From NCBI GenBank assembly GCA_023920165.1, contig CP089275.1, positions 1,798,001 to 1,862,000 of the forward strand: DNA of 64,000 bases, in the 5' to 3' direction. The notes below the pieces were generated by a model that was not told the origin of the DNA, did not search any database, and was given only the letters and a program-made list of their open reading frames with translations. Positions 45,519 through 60,970 of this stretch are shown one piece after another; position 1 is the first letter of the stretch, and every line of letters starts with the position of its first letter. This stretch comes from Curvularia clavata (Eukaryota). Position numbers and translations under genes: made by a program.

Positions 45519-46154
45519 GTTGAGAGACTGGTGCCGCTCTAGCCCAGGAAAACTGCATCCTCAATCGTCGGATATTCGCCTTCTTAAAGGTTCCTCTAAC
45601 CCCATCTACCGCTCGTCTAAAATACCTACCACGCTGCACTCGGGGGGGGGCGCGAGTCGCGGAACTACTACCGATGAGTTAATGCATGTTCTGCCGATAG
45701 CTGCGGTAACAAGATTCTGGTGCGGAGAAACAGACGCTGAAAGGCGTGAGAAACGATGATAATGTTGCATATTCCTGTAGTTTGCATAAACTAGTCATGG
45801 CGTGGTTGTAAGTCTGGGTCGTAGACCCACACATCGGCAAGGGGGCGTTACACAGGTTGGGATACCTACTTCCCCTCTCGTCAATGTTGCTATGCTTCTT
45901 TGCGTCGTAATTTTCTGCGCTTAGAGTCTTTTACGCATACAAAAACTTCTTGTGTGTGATAATTTTGCACGTAATCTGTTCTTCGGTAACAACAGCAACC
46001 TTTTGTCCTGTTGAAGGTGTACGGCCCGCTGTAGATACCAACTTTGTGTGACCTGTGTACATCTCGCCTCGCTTTTGCCTCACGCTCGCTACTCTACATT
46101 CCCGACCCGCTAATGCGGCATAACTAGTTACTCTTTGAGGTGAGTCAGGTAGTA

Positions 46155-46428
46155 TACTCGCTTGCACAATCGGCTTCCGGTATCTATACTTCGCGCCCTT
46201 TCTCACAGCAGGGGGTCAGCCTTGCTTAGCGGGAGCTATACCTCATACGTATCAGATCAACTTAAGCCGCCTAGGTCCTGCTAGTATCTGTGATATAATA
46301 TGCCTTTATCGCTAGATGTTCACAAGGGTACGGGTCGGCAGTCCTCCCTGCTAGGGTCGCTGGGATAGTTTCTTAGTTCAATGATGTTGAAGGGGCGAAT
46401 CTTCAACGTGCACGTAGCTCTAGAAGTA
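46155..46428 (+). repeat. Left inverted repeat (~274 bp)
   Basis: 46168-46240 matches the reverse complement of 49849-49921 at 70/73 nt (3 transitions). 46383-46408 matches 49653-49678 at 26/26. The middle part aligns with indels. Confidence 0.9.
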
Positions 46429-46669: not shown

Positions 46670-49143
46670 TCACTCCACGTTAACGTCGGCGCCCTTGTCG
46701 AGCAATAGCTTCACTACTGTCTCGTGGCCTCTCCATGAAGCCGCCTGGAGCGCGTTGCCGTAGTGTCCACTTTGGGCGTTAACGTCGGCGCCTCTGTCGA
46801 GCAGTAGCTTTACTACTGCCTCGTGGCCTCTAACTGAAGCTGCCTGGAGCGCGTTGCCGTAGCGTCCACCCTGGACGTTGACGTCGGCGCCCTTGTCGAA
46901 CAGCAGCTTCACCATTCTTTGATGTCCATGTTCTGCTGCAAGATATAGGAGAGTCTGGCCCTCGCTATCTCTTCTTTCTAATATGGATGCTGTCTCTCCT
47001 ACTTGGTTTAGGAGCAGGGCTTCTAATATAATGGCTAACCCGAAACGTGCTGTAAGATGCAATCCTGTACTGTCCTTGGGATATTCCTGGCTATACCCTT
47101 GATATGTGTATTTTGGTCGTAACAGTGCCTGCGTAGCGCAAGAAACCAACTCTTTGCAGGAAAGAAATGAGCAGGCTAGCTCATATATATCACCTTCCAC
47201 TGTTAACGCATGCTCTCCCCAGTGCTTGGCAGTATAGTCTAAGAATTGGCTTGCTCGAAGCCTCTCTTCAAATTCTTCGTCAGAGGAGCATCTCCCAGTT
47301 TTAAATATGCTGAATGATAGGTACGTGAGACATTTCGAGGCTATATGTAGTTGAGCGCCTGGATTCTATGTATCTCGGATACGTTCAAAAAATTCTTGAG
47401 TGGTATAATGCACAAGACGGATAATAGCACTTTCTTGGTCAACGACGACCAGTCCAGCACACACGGATAATAGATCCTCAACATCAGGTATATTCTTAGG
47501 ATCGAGCTCTGCCTCGTCCGGCTCTACTGCTAGAGTACAGCAGATCTCTGTCGTGGTAAGCGGCCGTTTCGCATACGTGATTTATGACAGTACTCTTTTG
47601 GCTAGTTCGTAATCTCCGCTTAGCTGGTACTCTATGTGATAGATCGCCTCCTTGTATGCGTCATCAAGTGCGGCCGAGCCTTTGGAGAGCTTTGCTAGTG
47701 TTGACTTTATGTCTTTCGCCGTTCTCTTGTCTAGCAGCGAATCAGTGTAGAGGCAAGCAAGAAGAAACCTAAGAATGTGTAAGTCCGCGTTATATTACAA
47801 GTTGGCTAGAAGAAACATGCATGCCGTCTACCGCCTTTATGATCTTTTCCTGGATAAACTTCTGTAGTATACGGTCACGTTGAATACACTTTGGTAGTCG
47901 ATATATCTGGCCAGCCACGAATTGCTTCACATCCTCTTCACTAGCCTGTACTTCTAGCTTTAGCCCTTCCTTAAACCAGTCCACAATTTCTGGCATAAAA
48001 CGCGAGGTGGCCATTAGGCGAACGTCACGTCCCGCCTGAAGATCGCGGAGTTTGGCTAGAAACTGGCGCCGAGTGCCGTCGCTGTCTATACATTCATCTA
48101 GAGCATCGACCATAACATAGATAGTAGAGTAATGTGCAAGTACATCTCGGAGTGCGCTAAAGACCTTATCAGGCGAGGGCCTGGTTCCTCTGTTAGTATG
48201 CTGTTTGTGCAACCGTTCCATAGGATCCACTAGTGACAGTCGAGCCTGCACCAGCTGTTTAAGGATAGCTGCCAACATCCTCGAAGTATCCTGCTCCTCC
48301 TGAGCCTTGTAGTTGCAGTACACGTAAGCAACTCCAACTCTATGTAAGCTACTCTGCACTGATTTCAACAGGTAGTCGATCGCGATGGCGGCTACCATGG
48401 TCTTGCCAGCTCCCGGGATACCTAGGCAAAAGAGTGTTGCCTGGTATTCACTGAGCTACGTAGTCACCTGAGGCGCATCTAAAAATCATTGGCCTGTTCC
48501 CTCCTGTCTGCGATTTATAATGTCGGATTGTTGTGCGGGGTAGTCTGAGGGAGAGATTCATTCTAGAATCCTGCGGTGCTTCTCGGCGTCTTGATCTTGC
48601 CTGATCTCTTCTACACCCGACTGGATAACAGGTACGTGCGTCCGGGTGAAGTGAGTATCGTCTTTGATAGCTTGGGAGAGTTTGCTTTAGGATATAAGTA
48701 ATAACGCTTTACCATCCTAGTAGGGAAGCTTATAAGAGGTCCATCTGCAACGCGATCTCTATAAGCGACTTTAAACGCTCTATTCGATCTAATATACTAG
48801 CAATCTCCTCTTTCTTAAACTTCCACACGAGCGCTTTACCTACATTCTTCAACCGACCTCCATCTGTAATCTTAGTCTGCAGCGCTTCAAGCGCCTGCTT
48901 GAACTGGTCGAATGGGCCCTCAGAACCTGCGAGCTCTGCGATAGAGGTATACCACGGCTGGCTTAGATCTCCTGTCTGGACGTGATCTCGCAAGTCGCGA
49001 AGTAGAGCGGAAAGGTTCGATATCTCAGCCTCGCAGTGCGAGCGTTCTTTCGGGGCATCTCTAACGTCGCTTAGGTACTCGAGGACCTTGGCTGAGAGCT
49101 GGAGAACTGCGATGATGCTGGCTGCGACGCTGAGCGGATCCAT
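46670..49143 (-). pseudogene. Fungal NLR (STAND) pseudogene: HeLo-like/SesA-type N-terminal domain + NACHT + ankyrin repeats
   Basis: MDPLSVAASIIAVLQLS…LVWKFKKEEI N-terminal domain, Walker A GIPGAGKT (~48399-48422), Walker B VDALDEC, GMFLLA, RPLT…[10 protein letters not shown] and GNALQAAS ankyrins. Five Trp-position stops: 48558-60 TGA, 48486-88 TGA, 48456-58 TAG, 47582-84 TAA and 47366-68 TAG. The first intron donor is mutated (ATAAGC). Confidence 0.92.
46681..46914 (-). repeat. 99-bp-period ankyrin-coding tandem repeat (~2.4 near-identical units)
   Basis: Units start at 46681, 46780 and 46879 (t[a/g]acgtcggcgcc…) and encode GGRYGNALQAASVRGHEAVVKLLLDRGADVNAQ / SGHYGNALQAASWRGHETVVKLLLDKGADVN. 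Confidence 0.85.
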
Positions 49144-49629
49144 GTCATGTAATCGACATAGGCGGTAGATGCGTGTTGAAGGGAGGCGGAAATGGAGGAC
49201 GATGGCATTGTCTAGGCGGAGGAGCTGAAGCGGGAGCGGAGGGCTGAGGGATTGCGGCTGCAGCAAGGCTGAACAGCTCGTCGTGCTGCGCCGCACCTTA
49301 TCGACAACACCTTATTGTCATCACCTCAGCGCTTCTCCACTAATGAAGCACGTGAGGCCACAATATAGCTTTGGGGCTAACGCATTTCCAAAATCTGTAA
49401 GGTAATCTATCTATTGTGTCAGTCATCAGCGCCTCGATCGAGCACCTTAGAGTAACTCAGCTGGCTCGAAGCTACTCTAATGAGGTTAATTATCTACGAT
49501 TAAGGGTGCGGGTAAGGCTAAACTGCTAGGAGCAAGAACTTAGCCACAGGCAAAAAAGTGCACTAATCGCTGCGGCGTGAGCATTAGCCTCGTAATCGTC
49601 CTAGCCAAGTAACGGTAGATCGGCTATAA

Positions 49630-49934
49630 TACTTCTAGAACTACGAAGTTGGCGTTGAAGATTCGCCCCTTCAACATCGTTAAACTGAGGAGCTCCTCCA
49701 GCGACGCTAGTAGGGAGGATGGCTGACCCGGCTACAGGGTTGTGAGCTTTCCGGTTATTAAAGAGTATCATATTACGGAGTACAGATAACGACTCGCAGG
49801 AGCTGGGCGCCTTAGGCTGATCTACAGCGTATAAGGTAGTTAACTAGTTATAGCTCCCGCTAAGCGAGGCTGATCCCCTGCTGTGAGAAAGGGCGCGAAG
49901 TATAGATACTGGAAGCCGATTATGCGAGCGAGTG
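49630..49934 (-). repeat. Right inverted repeat (~305 bp)
   Basis: Reverse complement of 46155-46428, with a 12-nt insertion (gttaactagtta) at a TA near 49838-49850. Confidence 0.9.
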
Positions 49935-50522
49935 TAATTACCAAAGCACGTAGAGCTTTGTACGAATCCCATGTCTCCCTGGTTGTGTGACTTCAGATAG
50001 GTACCCATTGCTTCTTCAAAGTCGACTGGGCGGACCCTTTTCACGTCATTTGAGCACGTCATATCAATTTAGGCTCTAGAAAAGCCTTCTGTAGCAGGAA
50101 TTCTTAGTCTGTGTCGTTCCCCAGATCATCATGGGCCAGTGCTGCGGCACAGTCGACCGAGGTCAGGGATGCTACATCCTGAGTAACCATTCACAAGAGC
50201 CATCGCTACTATTTCTTCCACGTGATCCAAAAAATCAAATTCTCGAATGCATAGCACACATTCCATCGTTTGAAACCCCTGTGGCAATCCTGAAAATCAC
50301 GGAAATGCATCCCTTTTACAGCCCGACCGTGGCTATCGCAAGGCTGGTCTCCGTACTATGCTGTCGGGACATGGGCCCTAACCTGGTATTTGGGACAGTT
50401 TAAGATGCTATATGAATCAAGAGAGTGAATTCACCATGCTCTTTTGTTCTGCTGACCAGTTTTCTTGCATAGTTGTCCTTTCACGCTTCTTGTTCGTGCT
50501 TCTTTCCAGGGTTGCCTTCACC

Positions 50523-50803
50523 ATGGCAGAACACCAGAACGACTGGCCCCATCGCCGCGTTACCATTCTCGCTCCAAACACCGCTCTCGTCATCATCAGC
50601 ACGCTTTTCGCTATGTGGCGTGTGATCTACGGGATCAAGACCAAACGCAAGGGCATAATATGCGACGTTCTTCTCTCCGTTGCAGTCGTACGTACATACA
50701 CTCTCCAACAAAAACAACTTACATCCTAACTGTCCTGTTGCAGATACTAAACATAGCATCCATCATCATCCACTTCAAATCACAGCCCACCATGGGAACA
50801 TGA
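50523..50803 (+). pseudogene. 5' remnant of an integral membrane protein gene (PTH11/rhodopsin-domain-like), truncated
   Basis: MAEHQNDWPHRRVTILAPNTALVIISTLFAMWRVIYGIKTKRKGIICDVLLSVAV, then intron 50688-50743 (GTACGT…CTAAC…CAG), then ILNIASIIIHF… and a stop after only two TM helices. The family call is tentative. Confidence 0.45.
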
Positions 50804-51227
50804 GAACGACAAAATGAACTCTCAACATCTCCAGTTAGACAAAAACGTGTTCTTAGCACCCTACTCTTCAACCAGGGTACATACGTCTTAGTGTACCACA
50901 AAAGACTGCGTCCATCAACTCCACTAAGCTGCACTGTTTTCAGCTCTTAGGGAGAGGGGAGAAACATTAAACTTGTCCATCTTTATACCACTGACTAGAC
51001 AACAATCTAAGTCTTCAACGCGAGACGAAATGGTTTCATCCCGCTATTTCAGCACACAAAGAGATCGGCTGGGGCCACCATGCATTCCATAGTTGAAGGT
51101 CAATGTTGCCTAGAAGGTATTATTTCAAGGCATTTGGACCTTCTTTATCAATTTCTCCTACAACTCAGAGTCGCGACCACCACATAGTGCTCCTGCATGG
51201 TATCAGCAACCAGCTTTACCAACAACG

Positions 51228-51930
51228 ATGGCGCCCCATTTACTCAGTCTTCCAGCCGAGACACGCGACCTCATCTAGAAATACGCCCTGATCGGGGAAG
51301 ACAATACCCTCTACTATCATGAAGATCAGCGCAGCACTGGCCGGCTGTTCCTGGAAGAGAAAGTACCGGACATGATGTTCGAGACCGTGTTGAAATACTT
51401 TGAATCTGGGATCGGACAGCCCCCAAACAGATACTTCGATCAAGTTTCCAAAAAGGACAAAGTCGAAGCTCATGCGACTCATTCCCAATCAGCTGCAATT
51501 CGTCTGTTGTCAGCTGTGCCTTGAGACTAGAGGGCTCAGTATGAAATACAACTCGAGCACATTGAACCAGCGCCACTCCGATACATCGAGGGCGCCGCAT
51601 TTGTTGCGCGCGGTTTTTGAAAAAGATATTCTCTCGCCCATTTACAAGTGTACGAGCGAGAATCTCACGGACTGCTACTTATGCCGGCTTTGCCACTGGA
51701 CTTTTCGGAGCATGTACAAGTACAATGGTATCCTGGCCCCGTCTTTCTTCCGTGAAGTCCCGTCCAGTTTTCGTTTCTATCCCTGCATGGCAAAGTTTGA
51801 TGAAGAACTCTTTGGGATTTTTGTTGAGATGCAGAATGTTTATCTGAGTAATTCTATGAAATATGGATCCCCGATTGATACAGATACTTTTGTGGCCTGG
51901 GCCAAGCATTGGCGGGAGAACGGTGTGTGA
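51228..51930 (+). pseudogene. Relic of an F-box-like ('LLSLPAE.R..IW') hypothetical protein gene
   Basis: MAPHLLSLPAETRDLI*KYAL has TAG at 51276-78 where Trp is expected. After a frameshift, the ORF 51400..51930 frame carries NQLQFVCCQLCLETRGLSMKYN, resembling a common fungal hypothetical family. Confidence 0.55.
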
Positions 51931-52137
51931 GGAAGGGTACGAATTGTTTAGAGTGAACAATACTAGAAGAAGATGAGACCTCCTCACAAAATGTACATTA
52001 ACCGGCTTCTTATCAATGAGTACTTCATATCTAACGATCAGTAATATGGTTGTCCCATACCAAACATTTCCATCATACTTCGTACATTACACTAACAAAA
52101 ACAGCGCTAAAATGCCAATCAAATAAAACACGCCCTC

Positions 52138-55100
52138 TTACTCCTTATCAACAATCAACACATCCACCGCCGCGTCCTCAGGATGATGTCTCTCCCTCAG
52201 CAGATTCTTCTTAGCCCGTTTGCTGCGGAAATGGCGCGTGACAAAATGACTTGGGATCGCGCTCTCGGACGCCATGAGACGGTACTGCTTGGCGGATGGG
52301 GGTGAAGAATCCGCCTTCATGCGAATACATCGTTTTTCGTTCCACATGTGGTAGGACTGGCCGTTTTGCAGAGTCCAAGGACCGGTGGTGGGATCGTCGT
52401 CTTCGTCTACCTCATTGCGGTATTGGATTACGGCTGTGCCAAGGCACTTTGGAGCCATGCGCCAGGATTGCTGTAGTGCCGCCTGGCAGGGATTGTCCTT
52501 GCATATTAAACATGTCGTTGTCATGTAGGCGAATGTGACGCCTTCTTCTGAGTCCGCGAGGACTTGCGCCCAAAGGTGTTTGTCTTGGCATGAGACTTTG
52601 ACGCCGCGGTGAAGATCACCTTCCTTTGGCCAAGCTATCTTGATATGTGTCCGCTCGCGGTTCAGGCCTGTGGGCTCGAGGATGCTCAGTATGCGGTGGA
52701 AGTATTTGAGCAGAGTAACGTAGGAGGCGGCGGAGGAGTGGCGCAGCGTGCGTAACCACTCGCTGACACCGTCTCTGCACAAACCGCTCACAATGCCGTC
52801 TTGGGTGTTCCAATCGTTCCAATCCGTTTCTCCCATGTGTGTGATGCAAAATGTGGGAATGAGATCGCTGAGGAGTTCCTGGAGCGAAATCCGGCGTGCG
52901 ACACCGGTACAGCAGCTCACTTGGACGCCGACATAGTATCCCAGGAACTCCATCAAACCGAAATCTCCCTGTTCAAGCTGATATTCCTTGAGCAATTTTG
53001 CGGGGATCTTGCTCCATACTTGGATAGCTTGAAGCGCAACATGGTCGGGCCCAACCTGCAATCCAAGTTGCCTTTGGTTCATAGCCCATCCCTCGGGTCG
53101 AACGGCTAGATGGACGAGGGGGCACGACAACCTCCATGTTTTCCAGTCAAACGAGCACTGTGTGAGATTCTTGGTGACGGGCGCCCCCACAATGACCCTG
53201 TTCCGGTAGTGGAAAGATCTCTCGGGGGATTTCTTTGGGCCGGGTCCAGCCTCCCAATGCAATCTACGACCAAACTCGTATTCATAATAGATTACGCCGC
53301 CTCCAACATTGATGGATTGCAGCCATGCTATCTCATCTTCTTTGTCCCCACAAGAAACTAGCTGTCCCGGTCCCCAAGTGTATAAGATGTCTTCTGGTGT
53401 CGCTGCTACATTATGCACATCCTGGTCGGCGAAGAGATCTTTGAGACCAAGTTGAGAAATTTTGTTAGGATCCGAAAACGCCTCTTGGATAACTGCTTGC
53501 GATCTCTCACTCTCGCTTGGAGGATCGCGTAACAAGCTGAAGGTTATTAGCGGTCCTTTGGTCATTTCGCTCAGGCAGGTGAGCTTGGTCAGGCGGACTG
53601 CAATGTGAGGACGGGGGAGCATTCCATCACCATTCAGCGTGTCTCTTCCTAGTAATACGGACCTCTCTTGCGGGTGGTTGGTGAAAACCGACTCTATAGG
53701 CCCTATGTGTCCTTGGCAGAATGACACAAGTCCGATGCATAGGCATTGTGCAGCTAAACAGCAGAAATGAAGGGGATCTTCAATCATGCATCGATCAAAG
53801 GACCACAGAGTGTCCTTAAGAAAGGGAGCTAGAACCGCGAAAGCCTCTAACAGCAGCGTCCCTCGACTGAGCATGTCAGAGGAGATGCACGATGGTAGTT
53901 TATCGAGTTCCTTGTATAGTTGGGCAGCCAAATCAATATCAACTCTCATAATTTCCACCTCGCGTATAGAGGCATTCGGTGTAGCAGAAGTGCGAGCGAT
54001 TGTAAGATATTCGAGACACAGACCAGCGCCTTGGAGAGCCGTTGCCGCTTCGCAGAAGCTTCTGAGAATGCGTTTTAATCGGGAAGCCAACTGAGACAGT
54101 CGTGTGGCTTCATCATCCTGGGAAGCGATTGAGTAGCTTATGTACGAGGTTGAAAAGTTGTCTTCAAAAATGACTTCACCGTTCCAATCCTGTAAAGACC
54201 GAGAGGTTGGTGCAACTCCGCCGAGACCGCAAAGCTGCTGAACTATCTTTTTGATGTCATGGCGCTTGGACAACCATGGAGAGTTCGAGAAGGCGTTTCT
54301 TACAGGATCCTTGGCTATCATCTCTCGATGTCGTAATATCCAATCTGCAGCAGTGTCCTTGGAAATCAGTGCCAGACGCTGTGCATTCTGAGCCGGCAGA
54401 TCTTGGGGATCACAGTAGATCCACGGCGCGTCATTTTCCTCCTCAAGGAGAAGCTGTGAAATATCGTACCAGCTGTAGCCTACGTCGGCGAGCTCGTTGA
54501 GCCACTCGTAGTCGTCTCGAGCTACCTTCTCAAATTCGATTTCCAGCAGCATTCGTACGGTACGAGAATCACGACGCTGCAACGCTTCGGTTAGGTGTGC
54601 TGGCGTCTTTTCTGGCTTTTCGAACTTACCAAAGTCTACTTGCCTGGGAATCAAAGCGGAAGGCAATGTAAGCTCCGGCGCTTGCGTCAGGTCTCCTGGT
54701 GTCTTGTCTGGTATCTTGACCCTGCCTAATTCCACTTGCCTTTGAATCGCGCCAGACGAACCAAACATGGGTTCCAACCTTACTCCGCCAAAACTCCACC
54801 CATCAACAGCGGTTTCCTTCTCGTATCTCTTACTGACCAAGAAACCCAACGCGCCATCCAGACCCACACTGACCTCTGTATCGCCCTGGATTTCCACCCA
54901 CCCTTTCCCTTTGAACTCCTCGTATCGACGACTCCCGACACGCACTCTGACAGCGTCGGGATGCAGCAGCACAGAGGCGACGTCTGGTGTAATTTTGACG
55001 TCGACATAGCGTGTCGTAAACGTCTGGTAGTCAAACGGTTTACCTACGCTAAAGACAACGTCGCGGGGCGGAGAAAAAGCCGAGTCATGGAAAGCGACAA

Positions 55101-56754
55101 TGAAAGAGACTCTGTATTTGCCCTGTGGAATGCCTGTTTTGATACTTCGCAAGCAAATATTTTCGGCGGATACACATTGGTAGACAGCGGCTTCTTCACG
55201 GCGGCCGTCGTGATCTAGGTCAGCTGCTACGGGGTAGATTTTGCGGAGGCGGCCGGTCTCATCCATAGCGAGTCCCCCTTCGCCAGTTGGCGAGGACCTA
55301 GTACGGAAATGTTGTGGTGTTGTGAGACCAACACCCATGGGCAAGCCACTTTTGAAATCTACGTGTACGAGCTTGAAAGAGTCGCCGAGCTGGCGGCTTC
55401 CTGACGTGTCAACAGCAAATTCGGTGGCGCCGATTTCGAACTTGGGTGGGAGAGCAGAGAGATTTGCCATGAGCTCGGCAAAGGCCCTTGCTTTGCGGAT
55501 TTGCAGGCTGTCTGTCATGTAGAGTTCAGTCAGGCTGGCCATCTCGTCTTCCTTCATCCATTGCTCTAGACTGACATCGGCGAGGCCGCGGTCGACGTCG
55601 AAGCGGAAGTACTTTGTATCTGAATTAGTGTACATACGCCTCATTTCGTTGTCCACGCGTGCTGTGCTAGTAGCCATGCCGGTAAGTGCACTGGCAATAG
55701 AAAGGTCAGTCCCGAGGCCAAACGGTAGCCATGAGGCTATCTTCTTAACACTAGGAATACTCTGCAGACCTGTTCCGACGGAGAGAATGACACCTATGGA
55801 TCGATCTTCCCACAATGCTTTGGCCGCATAGTCGACCTCTGCACAAGGGTTGTTGAAGCCAACGCCACCGTCTAGGTATGTGACTTTGGGTGTACCAAAC
55901 TGCATTTCTTCAAAAAATGTCGGTGCTGCCGACGTGGCTCGCAACGCCTCCCAAATGCGAGTAGTCCGGTCATTTGGGTCATAGGTAGATAGGACCCTGG
56001 GAAGCCCTAATGCATTCTTGAGTGAAGTGAGGACAAGGCCGCGACAGCCTTTTTTATCTGCTTTTTGGTGGACCGATGTTCGTTTGTGAGCTTTCCAGGT
56101 AGATTTTCGCGTGGGCTGCTTTGGATTGAATGGACTAGAGCTGTAGAGGGTCGACCCAGGCTTTGTATCACCAGGAGTCCCTGATTCTAATGAGGCCAGC
56201 GAGTTTTTCATGGTCGCCAACGGGCTTTCGGTAAGTGTCAACTTGGGCGCGGCATCTGCCCAGATGCTGTCCCCAGGCAGGTCGTCTTCTATCTCCTCGA
56301 ACAGTTCCTCATCCCACATGAGCTCGTCGGCATCGAAGCCTAGATCTGTAAGAGCACTTTTGATGGCGTTTGCTAGTACCGCACCGGAAAATCGGGTGGC
56401 TCCCGTGGGTATTTTCATGCCAAAAGCATTGATTGATCGGTCATGCTTGAAGATCTGCTCAGCCAGCTTGCAGTAAACAGCTATGCATTGCTTGCAGTCG
56501 AGTCTCAACCGCGAAAGCATAATAGCGATGATACCTCCGGTCGATGTACCGCCAATGAGATCGAAATAATCACATGGCTTGAGTGGCTCATAATCGTTGG
56601 TGGCTCTTCTCCCTAGTCTCTTTTCTTCCAAGGCAATGTTTTCCATCAGCGTGTCGAGAACAAGAAGTGACGACAACCCACGCACGCCTCCTCCGTCGAG
56701 GGACAGCAACCGCAGCGGTGCATTTGGGTTTCTCTCAGCGTTTGAGAGGTCCAT
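52138..56754 (-). CDS. 1538-aa intronless protein: patatin-like phospholipase + PP2-lectin-like domain + large uncharacterised C-terminal domain
   Basis: LLSLDGGGVRG, FDLIGGTSTGG (nucleophile Ser), WEALRATSAAPTFF and YLDGGVGFNNP (catalytic Asp) are all intact. The middle domain runs GKYRVSF…GWVEIQG…GWSFGGVRLEP. The C-terminal part has LCGLGG, TWGPG, GVQVSCCTGVARRISL and WAQVLADSE…TFAY. Confidence 0.88.
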   Translation of the reverse strand: MDLSNAERNPNAPLRLLSLDGGGVRGLSSLLVLDTLMENIALEEKRLGRRATNDYEPLKPCDYFDLIGGTSTGGIIAIMLSRLRLDCKQCIAVYCKLAEQIFKHDRSINAFGMKIPTGATRFSGAVLANAIKSALTDLGFDADELMWDEELFEEIEDDLPGDSIWADAAPKLTLTESPLATMKNSLASLESGTPGDTKPGSTLYSSSPFNPKQPTRKSTWKAHKRTSVHQKADKKGCRGLVLTSLKNALGLPRVLSTYDPNDRTTRIWEALRATSAAPTFFEEMQFGTPKVTYLDGGVGFNNPCAEVDYAAKALWEDRSIGVILSVGTGLQSIPSVKKIASWLPFGLGTDLSIASALTGMATSTARVDNEMRRMYTNSDTKYFRFDVDRGLADVSLEQWMKEDEMASLTELYMTDSLQIRKARAFAELMANLSALPPKFEIGATEFAVDTSGSRQLGDSFKLVHVDFKSGLPMGVGLTTPQHFRTRSSPTGEGGLAMDETGRLRKIYPVAADLDHDGRREEAAVYQCVSAENICLRSIKTGIPQGKYRVSFIVAFHDSAFSPPRDVVFSVGKPFDYQTFTTRYVDVKITPDVASVLLHPDAVRVRVGSRRYEEFKGKGWVEIQGDTEVSVGLDGALGFLVSKRYEKETAVDGWSFGGVRLEPMFGSSGAIQRQVELGRVKIPDKTPGDLTQAPELTLPSALIPRQVDFGKFEKPEKTPAHLTEALQRRDSRTVRMLLEIEFEKVARDDYEWLNELADVGYSWYDISQLLLEEENDAPWIYCDPQDLPAQNAQRLALISKDTAADWILRHREMIAKDPVRNAFSNSPWLSKRHDIKKIVQQLCGLGGVAPTSRSLQDWNGEVIFEDNFSTSYISYSIASQDDEATRLSQLASRLKRILRSFCEAATALQGAGLCLEYLTIARTSATPNASIREVEIMRVDIDLAAQLYKELDKLPSCISSDMLSRGTLLLEAFAVLAPFLKDTLWSFDRCMIEDPLHFCCLAAQCLCIGLVSFCQGHIGPIESVFTNHPQERSVLLGRDTLNGDGMLPRPHIAVRLTKLTCLSEMTKGPLITFSLLRDPPSESERSQAVIQEAFSDPNKISQLGLKDLFADQDVHNVAATPEDILYTWGPGQLVSCGDKEDEIAWLQSINVGGGVIYYEYEFGRRLHWEAGPGPKKSPERSFHYRNRVIVGAPVTKNLTQCSFDWKTWRLSCPLVHLAVRPEGWAMNQRQLGLQVGPDHVALQAIQVWSKIPAKLLKEYQLEQGDFGLMEFLGYYVGVQVSCCTGVARRISLQELLSDLIPTFCITHMGETDWNDWNTQDGIVSGLCRDGVSEWLRTLRHSSAASYVTLLKYFHRILSILEPTGLNRERTHIKIAWPKEGDLHRGVKVSCQDKHLWAQVLADSEEGVTFAYMTTTCLICKDNPCQAALQQSWRMAPKCLGTAVIQYRNEVDEDDDPTTGPWTLQNGQSYHMWNEKRCIRMKADSSPPSAKQYRLMASESAIPSHFVTRHFRSKRAKKNLLRERHHPEDAAVDVLIVDKE

Positions 56755-58459
56755 GGTTGAGGTTTGCCTGAGTGGGCAGGCAATCCTCTTTTCCGTATTT
56801 GATCTTTGGCTATACAACGCGGAAGCCTCGTGGGGTTTGGATAAGTTTTAACGAAAGTTTTGAATATTGGGAATCGTGCCGAGTACAGTTGAGCGTAATC
56901 TCACAAACAGCAGCGTGTTAACAGAGTGTACTCTGTAGCTGCCTTATGTATGCTTATTACCGGCACCGGGAGGCCTCCTCGACGTGGCTGTGCTGATGGT
57001 GACGCGATGAGTCAGGTGGCCGAGTGGCCTGTAGATCGGTGCTGCCAGCAAGGCTGCACTATTGTGTCGAATGGCGATCTGGGACAGGAGGTCATCGTCG
57101 CACATGTAGGGTAGGAAGGTATCATATTATATGTTGAGCAGCAAATGTGGCGGAGCTGGTGGAGCTGATACAGCTGCCTAGCCACGTTCAGGCGGCTGTT
57201 ACTGAAATGGGCGAAGAAAACTGCCTCCCCCACAATAGTGCAGCCACCCCTCAATCACACCTTCCCGTTCTTAGAGACCCGAGGCAGACAGGAACATTTT
57301 TATCTCAAATTCACACTATCTACCACAAGATTCAATAGATGCTGCCATCTTGAATGTAATCCAAGCCGTTAATAGGGGGATTTGTATCCAGCCATTGTAC
57401 GGTACACCAGGAGAGCCTCTTCCCTATACTAGTCCACTATATTTAACTCTGCCTTCGTAAGCTTCCAATATCGCTAGAGTTACTCTCTATTGATTCGTGT
57501 CGTGAACCATACAGACCATTTACTACTTTACTTTTAGGACACCCACTCAGCCCCATAACCCCAGCACAGATGTGCCGTGTTACCGAAGATGGGAGCTTGG
57601 GGGCCAACTTCGTGCTGATCCTTCAAACGCAACTAGTCATGTCCACATAGTAACACCGGAAACAAGGCAAAATGCACAAGCAGAATAATATCCAGTATGT
57701 CATTAACAACTACCCGTCACTCCTCGTACCAGTGAGTGTGCGTCGAGAAAGAAAAAAAATTCAACAATTAAAACAGTCGAGTTGCGACATGACAACGTGT
57801 CGGTGTGTGGTTGCTTGGACCAATCACCAGTGCTGCACGATACAGGTGGGACACGTAGAGTGGTCAGCAGACAGAGAAGGGTGGAGGGGGGCTGATGTAA
57901 GAGGTGTGTGTGCCGGAACGCCGAGCTGAGGCTCTGCGGGTTCGCGCAACGCACGGTGATGTTATTGATGTAATACATATGAAACGTCCGATCAAGGTAT
58001 GTAAGTAAAGTATGTAAGTAGTGTAGAAACAAAACGAAACGAAACAACAAAGGCGCGCTGAGCTGAGGCCTCGTGTGAGCTGGATTAAATTACATGTTTG
58101 TATCGCGTACTGATGCGTTTAGAGGGGGGAAAAACCGGCGACTATATGCAAAAACCAGGTGTGCATAAAACTCAATAATGCTGAATATTCAAAACCCTGG
58201 GTATTATAATCGAATGCTCTGTGTAACGCCGTACGTGTTCCCCCCCAATATCGGGTCGTTAGTCATGATAAGTCGTAAGTCGTTTTCGTTAAGGTCGCTC
58301 TGCAGGCTGCATGTCCTGCAAGTCATTATCTCTGAGGGAGATCAGCGGCTGTGACGGAGAAGGAGTGTAGCGGAAAACTGACATCCATCCATCTCGTCCA
58401 GTGTGCTGTGGGGTCGTGCAATAACATTCTTGGACCCTGGCGACAAGAGTGGAGTTGAG

Positions 58460-58561
58460 CAAGTGGTCGTGGTAGTCGGATAGTAAATGATGGTGGTCGT
58501 TGTAGACAGAGGGTAGATGATGGCGTTCGTGGTAACCAAATGAGATATGATGGCGGTTGTT
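58460..58561. repeat. Degenerate 30-bp tandem repeat (~3.5 units) just 3' of the Pro/Ser-rich gene
   Basis: Minus strand reads taccacgaacgccatcatctaccctctgtc / tacaacgaccaccatcatttactatccgac / taccacgaccac…. Confidence 0.55.
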
Positions 58562-59754
58562 CAATTAGTGAGGGCTGCAAAGCCTGTCCATTCCATGTAA
58601 GCCGATGTTCGTTGGTCGTATATGCGTTCCAGACATGCATCCGATTCTTTTGCTCGGAGGGTTCGCAGATTGTCGAACCTAGGGCTGTCCTTGCGCCTCA
58701 GCTTTTGGCGGGGAATGTAGACTGGGGAAGGCGAAGTGGCGATGGTCCAGTAGGCTGGGGAAAAGTAGCACATTGGCGAGCGAGCGCGGGTTGCTGGGGA
58801 ACTCGGTGGAGATGTCGTCGGTGTCGATGGTGTCGAAGGTGCCGACGCAGAAAAACTGGCTACTTCTGAAAAAACGGATGGGGTCGGGGATGAGGTCACA
58901 GAACTGGTGTGCGAGGTGACGGGCGATAGGACCATGGGGGATGGGGGCTGGAAAGGAGCAATGTTGGCAGGTCCGGGGCGGCGCACGCTTCCTTTTCCAG
59001 AAAGTGGGGATGGTCTCTTTGGGGTCGAAGCCGTTACGGAGGACGGCTTGGAGGGAATCGCCTTGGACGCGGTCGCCTTTGAGGGAGCAGGCTTGAAGGG
59101 AGTCGCCATTGACGGAATAGGTGGGGCCGGCCTGGTTGGGTGAGGAGGTATCGCAGGAGTAGCCGTTGCTGGAGCAGTCTTGGGTGGAGTGGTTTTGCGT
59201 GGAGTAGCCTGTGTCTTCTTGGTCGACTTGGGGATGGTGATGAGGGTTGGGCGTTCCTTTGGAGAGGTGGGTGGGGACATGGTGACCACGGTGTGGGTCT
59301 GGTCCTCGGATGGTTGCGCATCCTCCCTGTGGGACAGCGGCGAGGGCCGTCGCTCAGAGGTAGTGGCACGGCGAACACGCGGCGGCAGCGTGTTGCGGCG
59401 GCTGAATAGAGGCGATGGGCTTTTGACAATGTCCGAGTTGAACTGGAAGGGCTCTGGTGGTCGTGAGGGGCGCGACGATCGCGAGGGTAGCGAATTGCTT
59501 CTGCTGGGCAGCGAATTGCTCCGGCTGAAGAGCGGCTTGGGGACGAGGTCGGGCTGGGATCCGAACGTGAACATGGGCGGGCCAGCGAGGTCGGTCATGT
59601 CTACATCAGGCTTTTCGGAGGGCTGGTCGACGGGCTGGGGTTTTCTGTACTGGTAGAACTGGCGATAGGGGTGGCGCCGGGGGACGGGTGGTGTTTTGCA
59701 TAGCGTCAACGTCTCGTCCATCAACACGTCGAGGTCGGCCATCTTTCTTTTCAT
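58561..59754 (-). CDS. Pro/Ser/Thr-rich hypothetical protein, probably disordered
   Basis: Open frame of about 397 codons from ATG 59754 (MKRKMADLD…), with an internal SRSNSLP tandem and a structured-looking C-terminal block QKLRRKDSPRFDNLRTLRAKESDACLERIYD. Confidence 0.6.
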   Translation of the reverse strand: MKRKMADLDVLMDETLTLCKTPPVPRRHPYRQFYQYRKPQPVDQPSEKPDVDMTDLAGPPMFTFGSQPDLVPKPLFSRSNSLPSRSNSLPSRSSRPSRPPEPFQFNSDIVKSPSPLFSRRNTLPPRVRRATTSERRPSPLSHREDAQPSEDQTHTVVTMSPPTSPKERPTLITIPKSTKKTQATPRKTTPPKTAPATATPAIPPHPTRPAPPIPSMATPFKPAPSKATASKAIPSKPSSVTASTPKRPSPLSGKGSVRRPGPANIAPFQPPSPMVLSPVTSHTSSVTSSPTPSVFSEVASFSASAPSTPSTPTTSPPSSPATRARSPMCYFSPAYWTIATSPSPVYIPRQKLRRKDSPRFDNLRTLRAKESDACLERIYDQRTSAYMEWTGFAALTN

Positions 59755-60970
59755 GCTAGAGGCCCGCGGCAGACGCAGCCAAAGGTCGCAGGCTCGTGTC
59801 TGGGAGGGGCAGCGTGTCGTATCCTGGGGGTAGACGGCGGAGGGGGAGGGTGAATAAGAGGACGTGGTGGGTTGCAAGCGAGACGAGACAAGACAAACGG
59901 CGCTGGCAGCGTGGTCTGGGCAGCGGCGGCGGCGAGGGCCAGAGAGCAGGGCGGGAATTTTAGGATGTCCAACGACGCCGTCACCCGCCTACTCAGGAGA
60001 CCCGAATTAGTCGGTCAGATCCCTGCTTACGTGCGCGGCCACGCGAGGCACTATCTGGCGTCATTGGTTGGCGATGCAGGCCAAGCCAAGTTGCGGTAAA
60101 GACCATCCAAGGACTCCAAGGTTTGCCAGCGTGGCTGGGCCCCCGTAGCCCTGCATCGTGATTTTGACCGCCCCACGATACGGCGAAGCGTGACCCCTCA
60201 TGCTGTTCGGCGCTTCTTCGCTCAGCTGAGCGCTGGCAGGCAGAGCCCAGTACGCCCATATTGTCCCTCTCCGCCTCGTCGAGCTGCTGCTGACGGGCAG
60301 CCGAAATAGGGTCATGGTGAGATGGCCTGAGTGAGCACCTTGTGCGACCAACGGACCGCACAGTCTGCTCCCCAGCACCAGCCCGAGTACGCGCCCTCTC
60401 TCAGTCTCTTCTCGCGCCTCAACCAAAATGGGCAAGACGGGAACTAACGGCGTCCGGCTCATCGGCCCCCCTTGAGCTGCATCCCCGCCAATCGTCTTTG
60501 TCAAGTTTTCATCGCCAGCCCATCATGTCATTCCGCATGCCATGACGGCTGCCACGCTGCTGGGTGGGGTGTCCATCATACTACCGTCTACCATCTCTCT
60601 ATACACAGCCTTGTAGCATGACGCAAAGACGGTGTGTAAAAGAATGAACATGCGTTCTCATTCATGCGAGCTTTGGCCGCATACAGCACCCCCCGAGCAC
60701 GGCTACATACATACTCCGTACTACATGCAAAGCAATTCCGTCCTCGTCAACATATTACAATCATGTACCCTTCTATCAATTGGGAAAGACGAGAAGGAAA
60801 TTACAGGAAAAGGAAAGAAAAAAACTTTGGTCATGTAGACGCACCCGACATGTGTAAACCCCTGTAGATGCAAACATTAACCGTACCAAGACACACCCCT
60901 GGTATCATTCAAGATTACGCAAACCAAACCTTCCTCTAATTATAACACGCCGACCTTGCTTCGCCTTGGT

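Follow-up and report, generated by a model that had tools for sequence, protein, structure and literature searches.

The closest described counterparts of the gene reported here are two fungal NLR proteins with an N-terminal patatin domain, PLP-1 of Neurospora crassa and het-z/PaPlp1 of Podospora anserina. According to the accessible sections of the respective papers, cell death by PLP-1 needs the patatin domain (PMC10197012), HeLo-like, PNP_UDP and patatin domains are NLR effectors linked to cell death, and ANK, TPR and WD40 repeats are NLR sensors (PMC10197012, PMC13449251). Fungal NLRs also shuffle their domains, take up non-canonical ones and, in rare cases, capture housekeeping domains as putative integrated decoys, as far as the accessible text describes it (PMC12258605).

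Here, we analysed a locus in a stretch of 64,000 nucleotides (the window), whose host is fungal based on nearby BEACH, VID27, Fungal_trans, MFS and subtilase genes (Pfam). The locus contains an open frame of 1538 codons, and the encoded protein is identical to a public model in NCBI/UniRef. The frame consists of two parts, a conserved unit of a patatin and a PP2-fold domain (residues 1-668) and an orphan domain of about 820 aa. Its features are the following:

52138..56754, reverse strand: whole open frame of 1538 codons (1538 aa), translated in full if the junction intron is retained
51744..57169, reverse strand: span covered in single RNA contigs (run X10, 51744-57014; run X6, 51985-57169)
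55450..56715, reverse strand: patatin-like phospholipase domain, residues ~14-435 (PF01734 and predicted structure)
56677..56694, reverse strand: Gly-rich oxyanion loop, residues 21-26 (sequence)
56536..56550, reverse strand: GTSTG nucleophile motif, residues 69-73, with Ser71 (sequence)
55864..55872, reverse strand: DGG motif, residues 295-297, with Asp295 (sequence; near-invariant alignment column)
54757..55449, reverse strand: PP2/Nictaba-fold beta-sandwich, residues 436-666 (predicted structure)
54550..54741, reverse strand: lineage-specific linker of two 96-nt tandem copies, standing for an ancestral tail of ~14 aa
54577..54629, reverse strand: 53-nt intron with GTAAGT donor, CTAAC branch point (54594..54590) and CAG acceptor
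54569..54571, reverse strand: TGA reached after splicing, which ends a 710-aa patatin-PP2 protein
52138..54603, reverse strand: orphan C-terminal domain, residues ~718-1538 (family profile, model)
53014..53070, reverse strand: uncharged conserved Gln/Gly-rich beta-hairpin, residues 1229-1247, of low pLDDT
58561..59754, reverse strand: upstream Pro-rich gene, syntenic beside the patatin-PP2 orthologue in Stemphylium, Bipolaris maydis and Alternaria
51228..51930, forward strand: damaged F-box/2EXR-like remnant (weak similarity, with 60% over 39 aa and 36% over 58 aa)

Going by the accessible sections of the two papers, the window protein has an N-terminal patatin with intact motifs, a fungal host and a polymorphic C-terminus in common with PLP-1 and het-z (PMC10197012, PMC13449251). 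In contrast to both, it lacks NB-ARC and TPR modules, and its long form depends on an intron. No NB-ARC or NACHT domain was detected in the 1538-aa protein with Pfam or NCBIfam, and Pfam found no C-terminal TPR, ANK or WD40 repeats; the model of the C-terminal domain is a mixed alpha/beta fold. This agrees with a preliminary description made from the DNA, which had reported NB-ARC and TPR as absent. With neither a NOD nor repeats, the window protein is not an NLR, and patatin is all that it shares with PLP-1 and het-z in this respect. Moreover, NLR patatins match only part of the patatin-PP2 orthogroup, at 1e-47 or weaker. We place the locus among the modular fungal defence-type fusions. It resembles NLR shuffling in its free exchange of partners and rare capture of a housekeeping gene, but the NOD is the constant part there, to judge from the accessible text (PMC12258605), whereas a non-NOD C-terminal domain is constant here. 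Unlike in integrated decoys, the captured partner is the single resident gene, still in its syntenic position, and not a duplicate.

The patatin assignment rests on a PF01734 match at residues 17-306 (E 1e-21, 78.5 bits against a cut-off of 27.7 in Pfam) and on the predicted structure, which aligns with 1oxw (Z 22.8, rmsd 3.4, 301 aligned residues) and iPLA2beta 6aun (Z 21.1) and contains a low-confidence insert at residues ~149-261. The GxSxG pattern occurs in 121 of 122 sequences, and the Gly loop, GTSTG and DGG that had been noted as complete are indeed all present, at residues 21-26, S71 and D295.

For the following domain, a beta-rich segment had been proposed at ~55200-54770 and likened to PP2 lectins. 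The segment is real and larger than proposed, spanning residues 436-666, with a pLDDT of about 90 over residues 521-660 (AlphaFold, 99 sequences). Its predicted structure matches the plant proteins hinokiresinol synthase 8jmr (Z 12.8), the PP2 protein Cus17 7vs6 (Z 12.4, rmsd 2.7, 144 of 148 aligned) and Nictaba 8ad2 (Z 10.6), and the best carbohydrate-binding module scores below these PP2/Nictaba structures (Z 9.5). Foldseek agrees (8jmr, E 8e-6; 8ad2, E 5e-5), and the nearest Atlas clusters are PP2 as well (score 0.81, a lead only). Thus, judged from the model, the PP2 identity holds at the level of the fold. The beta-sandwich is shared with the plant proteins at only 10-16% identity, and the window's domain is fungal and joined to patatin; the top match, 8jmr, is an enzyme and not a lectin. 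Sugar binding by Cus17 involves Trp19 and Trp48 in its N-terminal third, according to the accessible part of the report (PMC12337204). In the window's domain, Trp is missing from the N-terminal half, and Trp619 and Trp653 are the only ones within residues 436-669, a comparison with Cus17 made by sequence and not by residue-level superposition. Because there is no Trp before residue 619 and Pfam PP2 (PF14299) does not match residues 436-670 at E 1, lectin activity is not supported; of the PP2 lectin only the fold stands.

The patatin-PP2 unit (residues 1-668) is a conserved stand-alone protein of about 680 aa in Dothideomycetes. A search with residues 436-668 gave 155 matches among proteins of 368-1173 aa, and among the 120 matches listed the identity is 57-79% and 116 carry patatin. 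The named relatives, which we take to be Dothideomycetes, include a Bipolaris oryzae protein as the nearest to residues 1-670 (85% identity over aligned columns). After the last strand, stand-alone relatives have tails of at most 30 aa in 106 of the 107 scored cases (median 14), where the scoring excluded the window protein together with an Aulographum model that is fused to an aminotransferase, and 13 further proteins lacked the anchor pattern. Among proteins of 845-2692 aa, three besides the query span both domains, and none of the three has the window's C-terminal part. Synteny is kept upstream, where the Pro-rich gene lies. The five Parastagonospora sequences are about 100% identical, and hypervariable alleles, suggested by their falling into five clusters, were rejected. 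Owing to its stand-alone relatives, their short tails, the upstream synteny and the near-identical Parastagonospora sequences, the unit looks like an ordinary conserved gene. An immune role for it, as proposed in the preliminary description, is at odds with a gene that stands alone, is syntenic upstream and is nearly monomorphic. We thereby identify a conserved Dothideomycete patatin-PP2-fold protein, of which no description in fungi was found in the accessible literature. Public models often fuse this gene with its neighbours (P0006, P0007, P0008, P0396 and P0405, with the Pro-rich gene, an aminotransferase, a histidine kinase or an F-box-like gene as partners), and these fusions look like annotation joins.

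Compared with this conserved gene, the window lineage alone carries an in-frame insertion of the C-terminal domain at the 3' end. A member of the orphan family was inserted there in frame, replacing the tail and the stop codon. A displaced ancestral tail further downstream was considered and rejected, as it was not found within the window. The junction linker is single copy in the genome, and a linker of 57 codons is free of stops by chance in about 6% of cases. Its second copy holds the intron, and the first copy (54646-54741) contains a degenerate version with a weak donor and a CTGAC branch point, which is unspliced in the contigs aligned.

The intron has no internal stop and a length that is not a multiple of three, so splicing shifts the frame and yields 710 aa, close to the ancestral size. 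Four of the 23 listed runs were aligned to the window (X3, X4, X6 and X10; the kinds of run are guessed). X6 and X10 come from two studies, carry the window's organism label (labels unverified) and represent another allele than the window's. Both behave as RNA: they skip 48684-48734 and 58331-58383, X6 also skips 49569-49633, and intergenic bins are nearly empty. At the junction, the contigs of both runs skip 54578-54632 with two letters between, a net loss of 53 nt which corresponds to the intron 54629..54577 together with a single allelic difference immediately upstream of the donor. As the DNA runs X3 and X4 retain the 53 nt, the skip is not a deletion. The bin depth at the intron is that of full splicing (134.8/151.4 and 585.4/657.6), and no intron-retaining contig was found in X6 or X10, contigs being prone to drop rare variants. 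It is the only intron seen in the gene. The open frame of 4.6 kb described before is therefore open over 1538 codons and not uninterrupted, with a 53-nt GT-AG intron spliced out in RNA contigs. The spliced 710-aa lipase appears to be the default product in the RNA assembled, and the 1538-aa model in public databases probably does not represent the main product.

A comparable intron motif is absent from 11 other long open reading frames of the window (21,954 nt) and arose in 7 of 2000 codon shuffles. An in-frame splice of 45 nt to an earlier AG was rejected, its acceptor lying 6 nt after the branch A and its use being unseen in RNA. Likewise, a junction intron common to the family was rejected, since none of 18 distinct metagenome loci has a consensus intron at the equivalent place and only one weak candidate (L017) emerged; this survey used a crude detector and covered the 31 of 46 loci with the anchor region, including 2 without the anchor Trp and 11 duplicates. 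Exitrons are introns inside coding exons, and the intron described here resembles them in being canonical, wholly within the open frame, without stop, frameshifting on splicing and observed in spliced form. It differs from exitrons in that the spliced form seems to be the default here, and keeping the intron would append an entire domain of ~820 aa.

The orphan domain belongs to a large family of at least 676 clusters of 50% identity at E 0.001, 269 of them at 1e-30 (HMMER, 1.84 billion representatives). In the 151 relatives examined, it lies at or near the C-terminus after 0 to 4400 other residues. The blocks in this region that had been picked out before proved to be conserved motifs of the family, and Gln1003, His1016, Cys1060, His1166, Cys1200, Lys1256, Ser1280, Cys1282 and Arg1288 are invariant or near-invariant. 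It is single-copy in the genome, and two queries returned no paralogue beyond the window copy. Among metagenome copies, L018, L020, L021, L023, L024, L038 and L040 are split by stops or frameshifts, and L035-L037, L039, L041 and L046 break at one common place that may be an intron.

The predicted structure of the domain is confident (pLDDT 80, pTM 0.76; 819-aa model). No match was found in Pfam, NCBIfam or PADLOC, nor by profile against PDB sequences at E 1, nor with Foldseek for the whole 819-residue model against PDB and viral libraries at E 0.001. The best hits of VIA-align (Z 6.4 and 5.2, for the whole multi-domain model of 819 aa) are generic helical bundles and were rejected, as was the best ESM Atlas hit (0.85, at most 92 shared features). 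With regard to a pore-forming fold of the gasdermin/beta-pore type, the whole 819-aa model offers the same best Z of 6.4, and the uncharged hairpin at residues 1229-1247, which ranks only 18th by alternation, is a weak hint of a transmembrane beta-hairpin. The domain is thus without structural match as a whole 819-residue model, from which a new fold does not follow. A description of the family was not found in the accessible literature, and supplementary domain tables, outside its scope, may list it. This large fungal family, which has no Pfam model and found no structural match in these searches, is a candidate new effector or sensor.

To characterize the partners of the domain, 112 of the 113 relatives with at least 100 upstream residues (one exceeded the size limit) were scanned with Pfam for the best five families per protein; all counts are lower bounds, PNP-like domains were sought by NCBIfam in 5 of the 112, and some NCBI models may be mis-joined genes. 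At least 33 of the 112 carry NACHT/NB-ARC, ANK, TPR, WD40, HeLo/PigL_N/SesA, PNP-like or patatin domains, at least 9 a kinase, and at least 10 Rsc7/Swp82, NDT80, Gti1/Pac2, NUDIX, dsRBD, C2H2, CorA, ubiquitin, DAHL or DUF6590; 56 have no labelled partner among the best five families per protein. The pairing with cell-death-type N-terminal domains that had been anticipated was found, in the form of HeLo-like, PNP-like, patatin and NLR parts, but the HET partner named in the same context was not seen among the 112 (best five families per protein). One other member of the family carries patatin (P0383), and the PP2-domain profile matches only the window protein among 152 proteins with the orphan domain. 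When 117 proteins were grouped by the 200 residues adjoining the domain, 47 groups resulted, the largest with 59 members and the next with 9, besides four pairs and 41 single sequences. A quick tree built from 120 sequences places the window copy among P0002, P0245, P0244, P0003, P0004 and P0005. Apart from P0244, a fragment, these five nearest relatives have five different N-termini (PigL_N in P0002, ankyrin-like in P0245, no Pfam match in P0003, DUF7708 in P0004 and PNP-like in P0005), and partners change at nearly every step of the tree. The orphan family thus exchanges partners with the repertoire of NLR and cell-death domains.

An unnamed helical, acidic module of ~200 aa lies directly upstream of the domain in 59 of 117 proteins, including P0004, P0005 and P0254, and is lacking in the window copy. 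In P0002, the stretch at residues ~240-278 after the HeLo-like domain resembles an amyloid signalling repeat and may be one; it is cut off where the orphan domain begins.

The two halves of the gene differ strongly between alleles. Against the window, X10 differs at 14 of 2382 nt upstream of the intron and at 155 of 2831 downstream, and X6 at 14 of 2537 and 142 of 2594. The C-terminal half is therefore about 5.5% diverged compared with 0.6% for the lipase half, about nine times as much, under the same, unverified organism label. The preliminary description had proposed allele diversity as a check; the C-terminal domain is indeed polymorphic, and deeply diverged alleles within a species label, a trait of the allorecognition type, are present in the C-terminal half. 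RIP was rejected as the cause, as no RIP signature was detected over 50000-59999. In X3, which has another organism label, 0.67 of the gene's words were found, and since this exceeds the maximum of ~0.55 with a C-terminal allele of the X6 type, we infer that the X3 allele resembles the window more than the alleles of the same-label runs do (labels unverified). This closeness fits old balanced haplotypes or introgression.

Despite the divergence, the frame of the orphan half is kept, with no net indel in 2440 coding nt compared with 3 indels in 394 nt of the 3' UTR (Fisher p 0.003; 0.010 counting one compensating pair in the coding part). All gap letters in the X6 and X10 contigs are accounted for, and frame keeping was judged from indels. 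A contig of X4, which differs at 24 of 572 nt, spans the junction without any gap. These data bear on a scenario in which the insertion brought harm or no benefit, the intron evolved to suppress it and restore the lipase, and the orphan domain drifts as an untranslated, neutralised relic. The spliced form alone is seen, the intron is lineage-specific, the C-terminal half is the more diverged one by the factor given above, neighbouring genes are damaged and several metagenome relatives are broken, all of which such a relic would explain. It is hard to reconcile, however, with 2440 nt without frameshift at 5.5% divergence next to three UTR indels, with a frame intact in the window where RIP left no signature, and with a domain whose model still folds confidently, and we regard it as quite improbable.

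Based on its partners, their swapping and the allelic divergence, the orphan domain would be a module for non-self recognition or cell death. That it is the acting part is slightly favoured, because the domain is also found behind full sensor arrays and behind housekeeping domains, and its core is invariant; a sensor role is possible and rather doubtful. Even less probable is the reading first offered for the locus, a 1538-aa protein made constitutively, with patatin as the killing part, the PP2 domain as a glycan binder and the C-terminal domain as a sensor of non-self. The open frame, the intact catalytic motifs, the PP2 fold, the effector-type N-termini of the nearest relatives, the patatin of P0383 and the polymorphism of the C-terminal half are all in line with it. 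In contrast, the RNA contigs from both studies have the short, spliced form, so that in the observed mRNA the C-terminal domain is not translated with the lipase; in addition, the patatin-PP2 unit is conserved as a stand-alone gene and Trp is missing in the N-terminal half of its PP2-fold domain. We consider this effector-lectin-sensor protein very unlikely.

We give about even chances to a splice-gated fusion, in which retention of the intron would arm a defence-type module on a housekeeping gene. Removal of the 53 nt shifts the frame and restores a lipase of near-ancestral 710 aa, the orphan domain staying in the 3' part of the message. At times, the domain would be translated by intron retention as part of the 1538-aa protein, and this occasional translation would be the reason why its frame is kept. 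The lipase-PP2 unit may act as the host gene that provides promoter, location and perhaps bait, and splicing may act as a safety catch on the orphan domain. In this form the locus would be a simple switch, one gene with two products between which a single 53-nt intron decides. We counted in favour of the gate the NLR- and cell-death-type partners of at least 33 of the 112 scanned relatives and the different N-termini of the nearest ones, the short tails of the stand-alone relatives, the restriction of the PP2-domain profile to the window protein, the kept frame and the allele divergence, the same skip and bin depth in two studies, the rarity of such an intron motif by chance, and the family's first conserved helix within the intron. 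Counted against it were the perfect consensus splice signals, which argue for efficient splicing, the local nature of the intron (0 of 18 distinct loci), the chance of about 6% for a stop-free linker, the 56 of 112 relatives without a recognised partner, the many partners that are not immune domains, and the origin of the RNA from other samples and another allele, the long form being seen as an open frame only. A retention-gated defence gene of fungi was not found described in the accessible literature.

A separate start could also keep the frame. The intron encodes the orphan domain's first conserved helix, and the domain has no Met before residue 735 (54552), which follows the spliced stop by 17 nt. 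Two products with two starts, the orphan domain being made from Met735 by an internal promoter or by re-initiation at this point, would account for the kept frame without retention; the 1538-aa protein would never be used and the open linker would be a leftover of the insertion. The position of Met735 directly after the spliced stop fits, 10 of 136 relatives have fewer than 40 aa upstream of the domain, and a contig does not separate one transcript from two overlapping ones. On the other hand, such a start drops the first conserved helix, which has a pLDDT of 94-97 in the model and is present in the family consensus, the reading frame continues through the intron and, in the X4 allele at 4% distance, has no gap there, and some of the short relatives may be partial predictions. 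Because this helix sits in the intron, upstream of Met735, read-through is favoured over a separate start, which we judge to be unlikely.

The splice-gated fusion can be extended to a view of the orphan domain as an undescribed fungal cell-death executioner that spreads onto the 3' ends of genes, with the window copy as a splicing tripwire. The gene's single intron would hold the executioner out of frame, and interference with splicing by a virus, a bacterium or a competitor, or retention promoted by a non-self signal, would lead to translation of a lethal long form. If true, arming an executioner through a retained intron would be new in kind, and we hold this extension to be improbable.

Four damaged neighbours had been described around the open frame, two of which, an NLR-like gene and the F-box-like remnant, are confirmed. 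The remnant resembles SETTUDRAFT_32027 of Exserohilum, the neighbour of the patatin-PP2 orthologue there, and its strand is opposite here. The NLR-like gene (49143..46670, reverse strand; PigL_N/SesA, NACHT, ankyrin) is interrupted by 6 or more in-frame stops, has lost an intact splice donor and is flanked by inverted repeats of ~280 bp (46153-46408 and 49653-49936). RNA from other samples, or from paralogues, covers this gene and is spliced there. These repeats recur as a second pair, 18 kb apart (G000:C7:2821248-2839331; L050 and L051), and these pairs are possibly a family of TIR elements carrying NLR genes. Between the repeats of the second pair lie a NACHT-like open reading frame, a transposase-like one, which we take to be of the Tc1/mariner type, and a long tandem-repeat tract.
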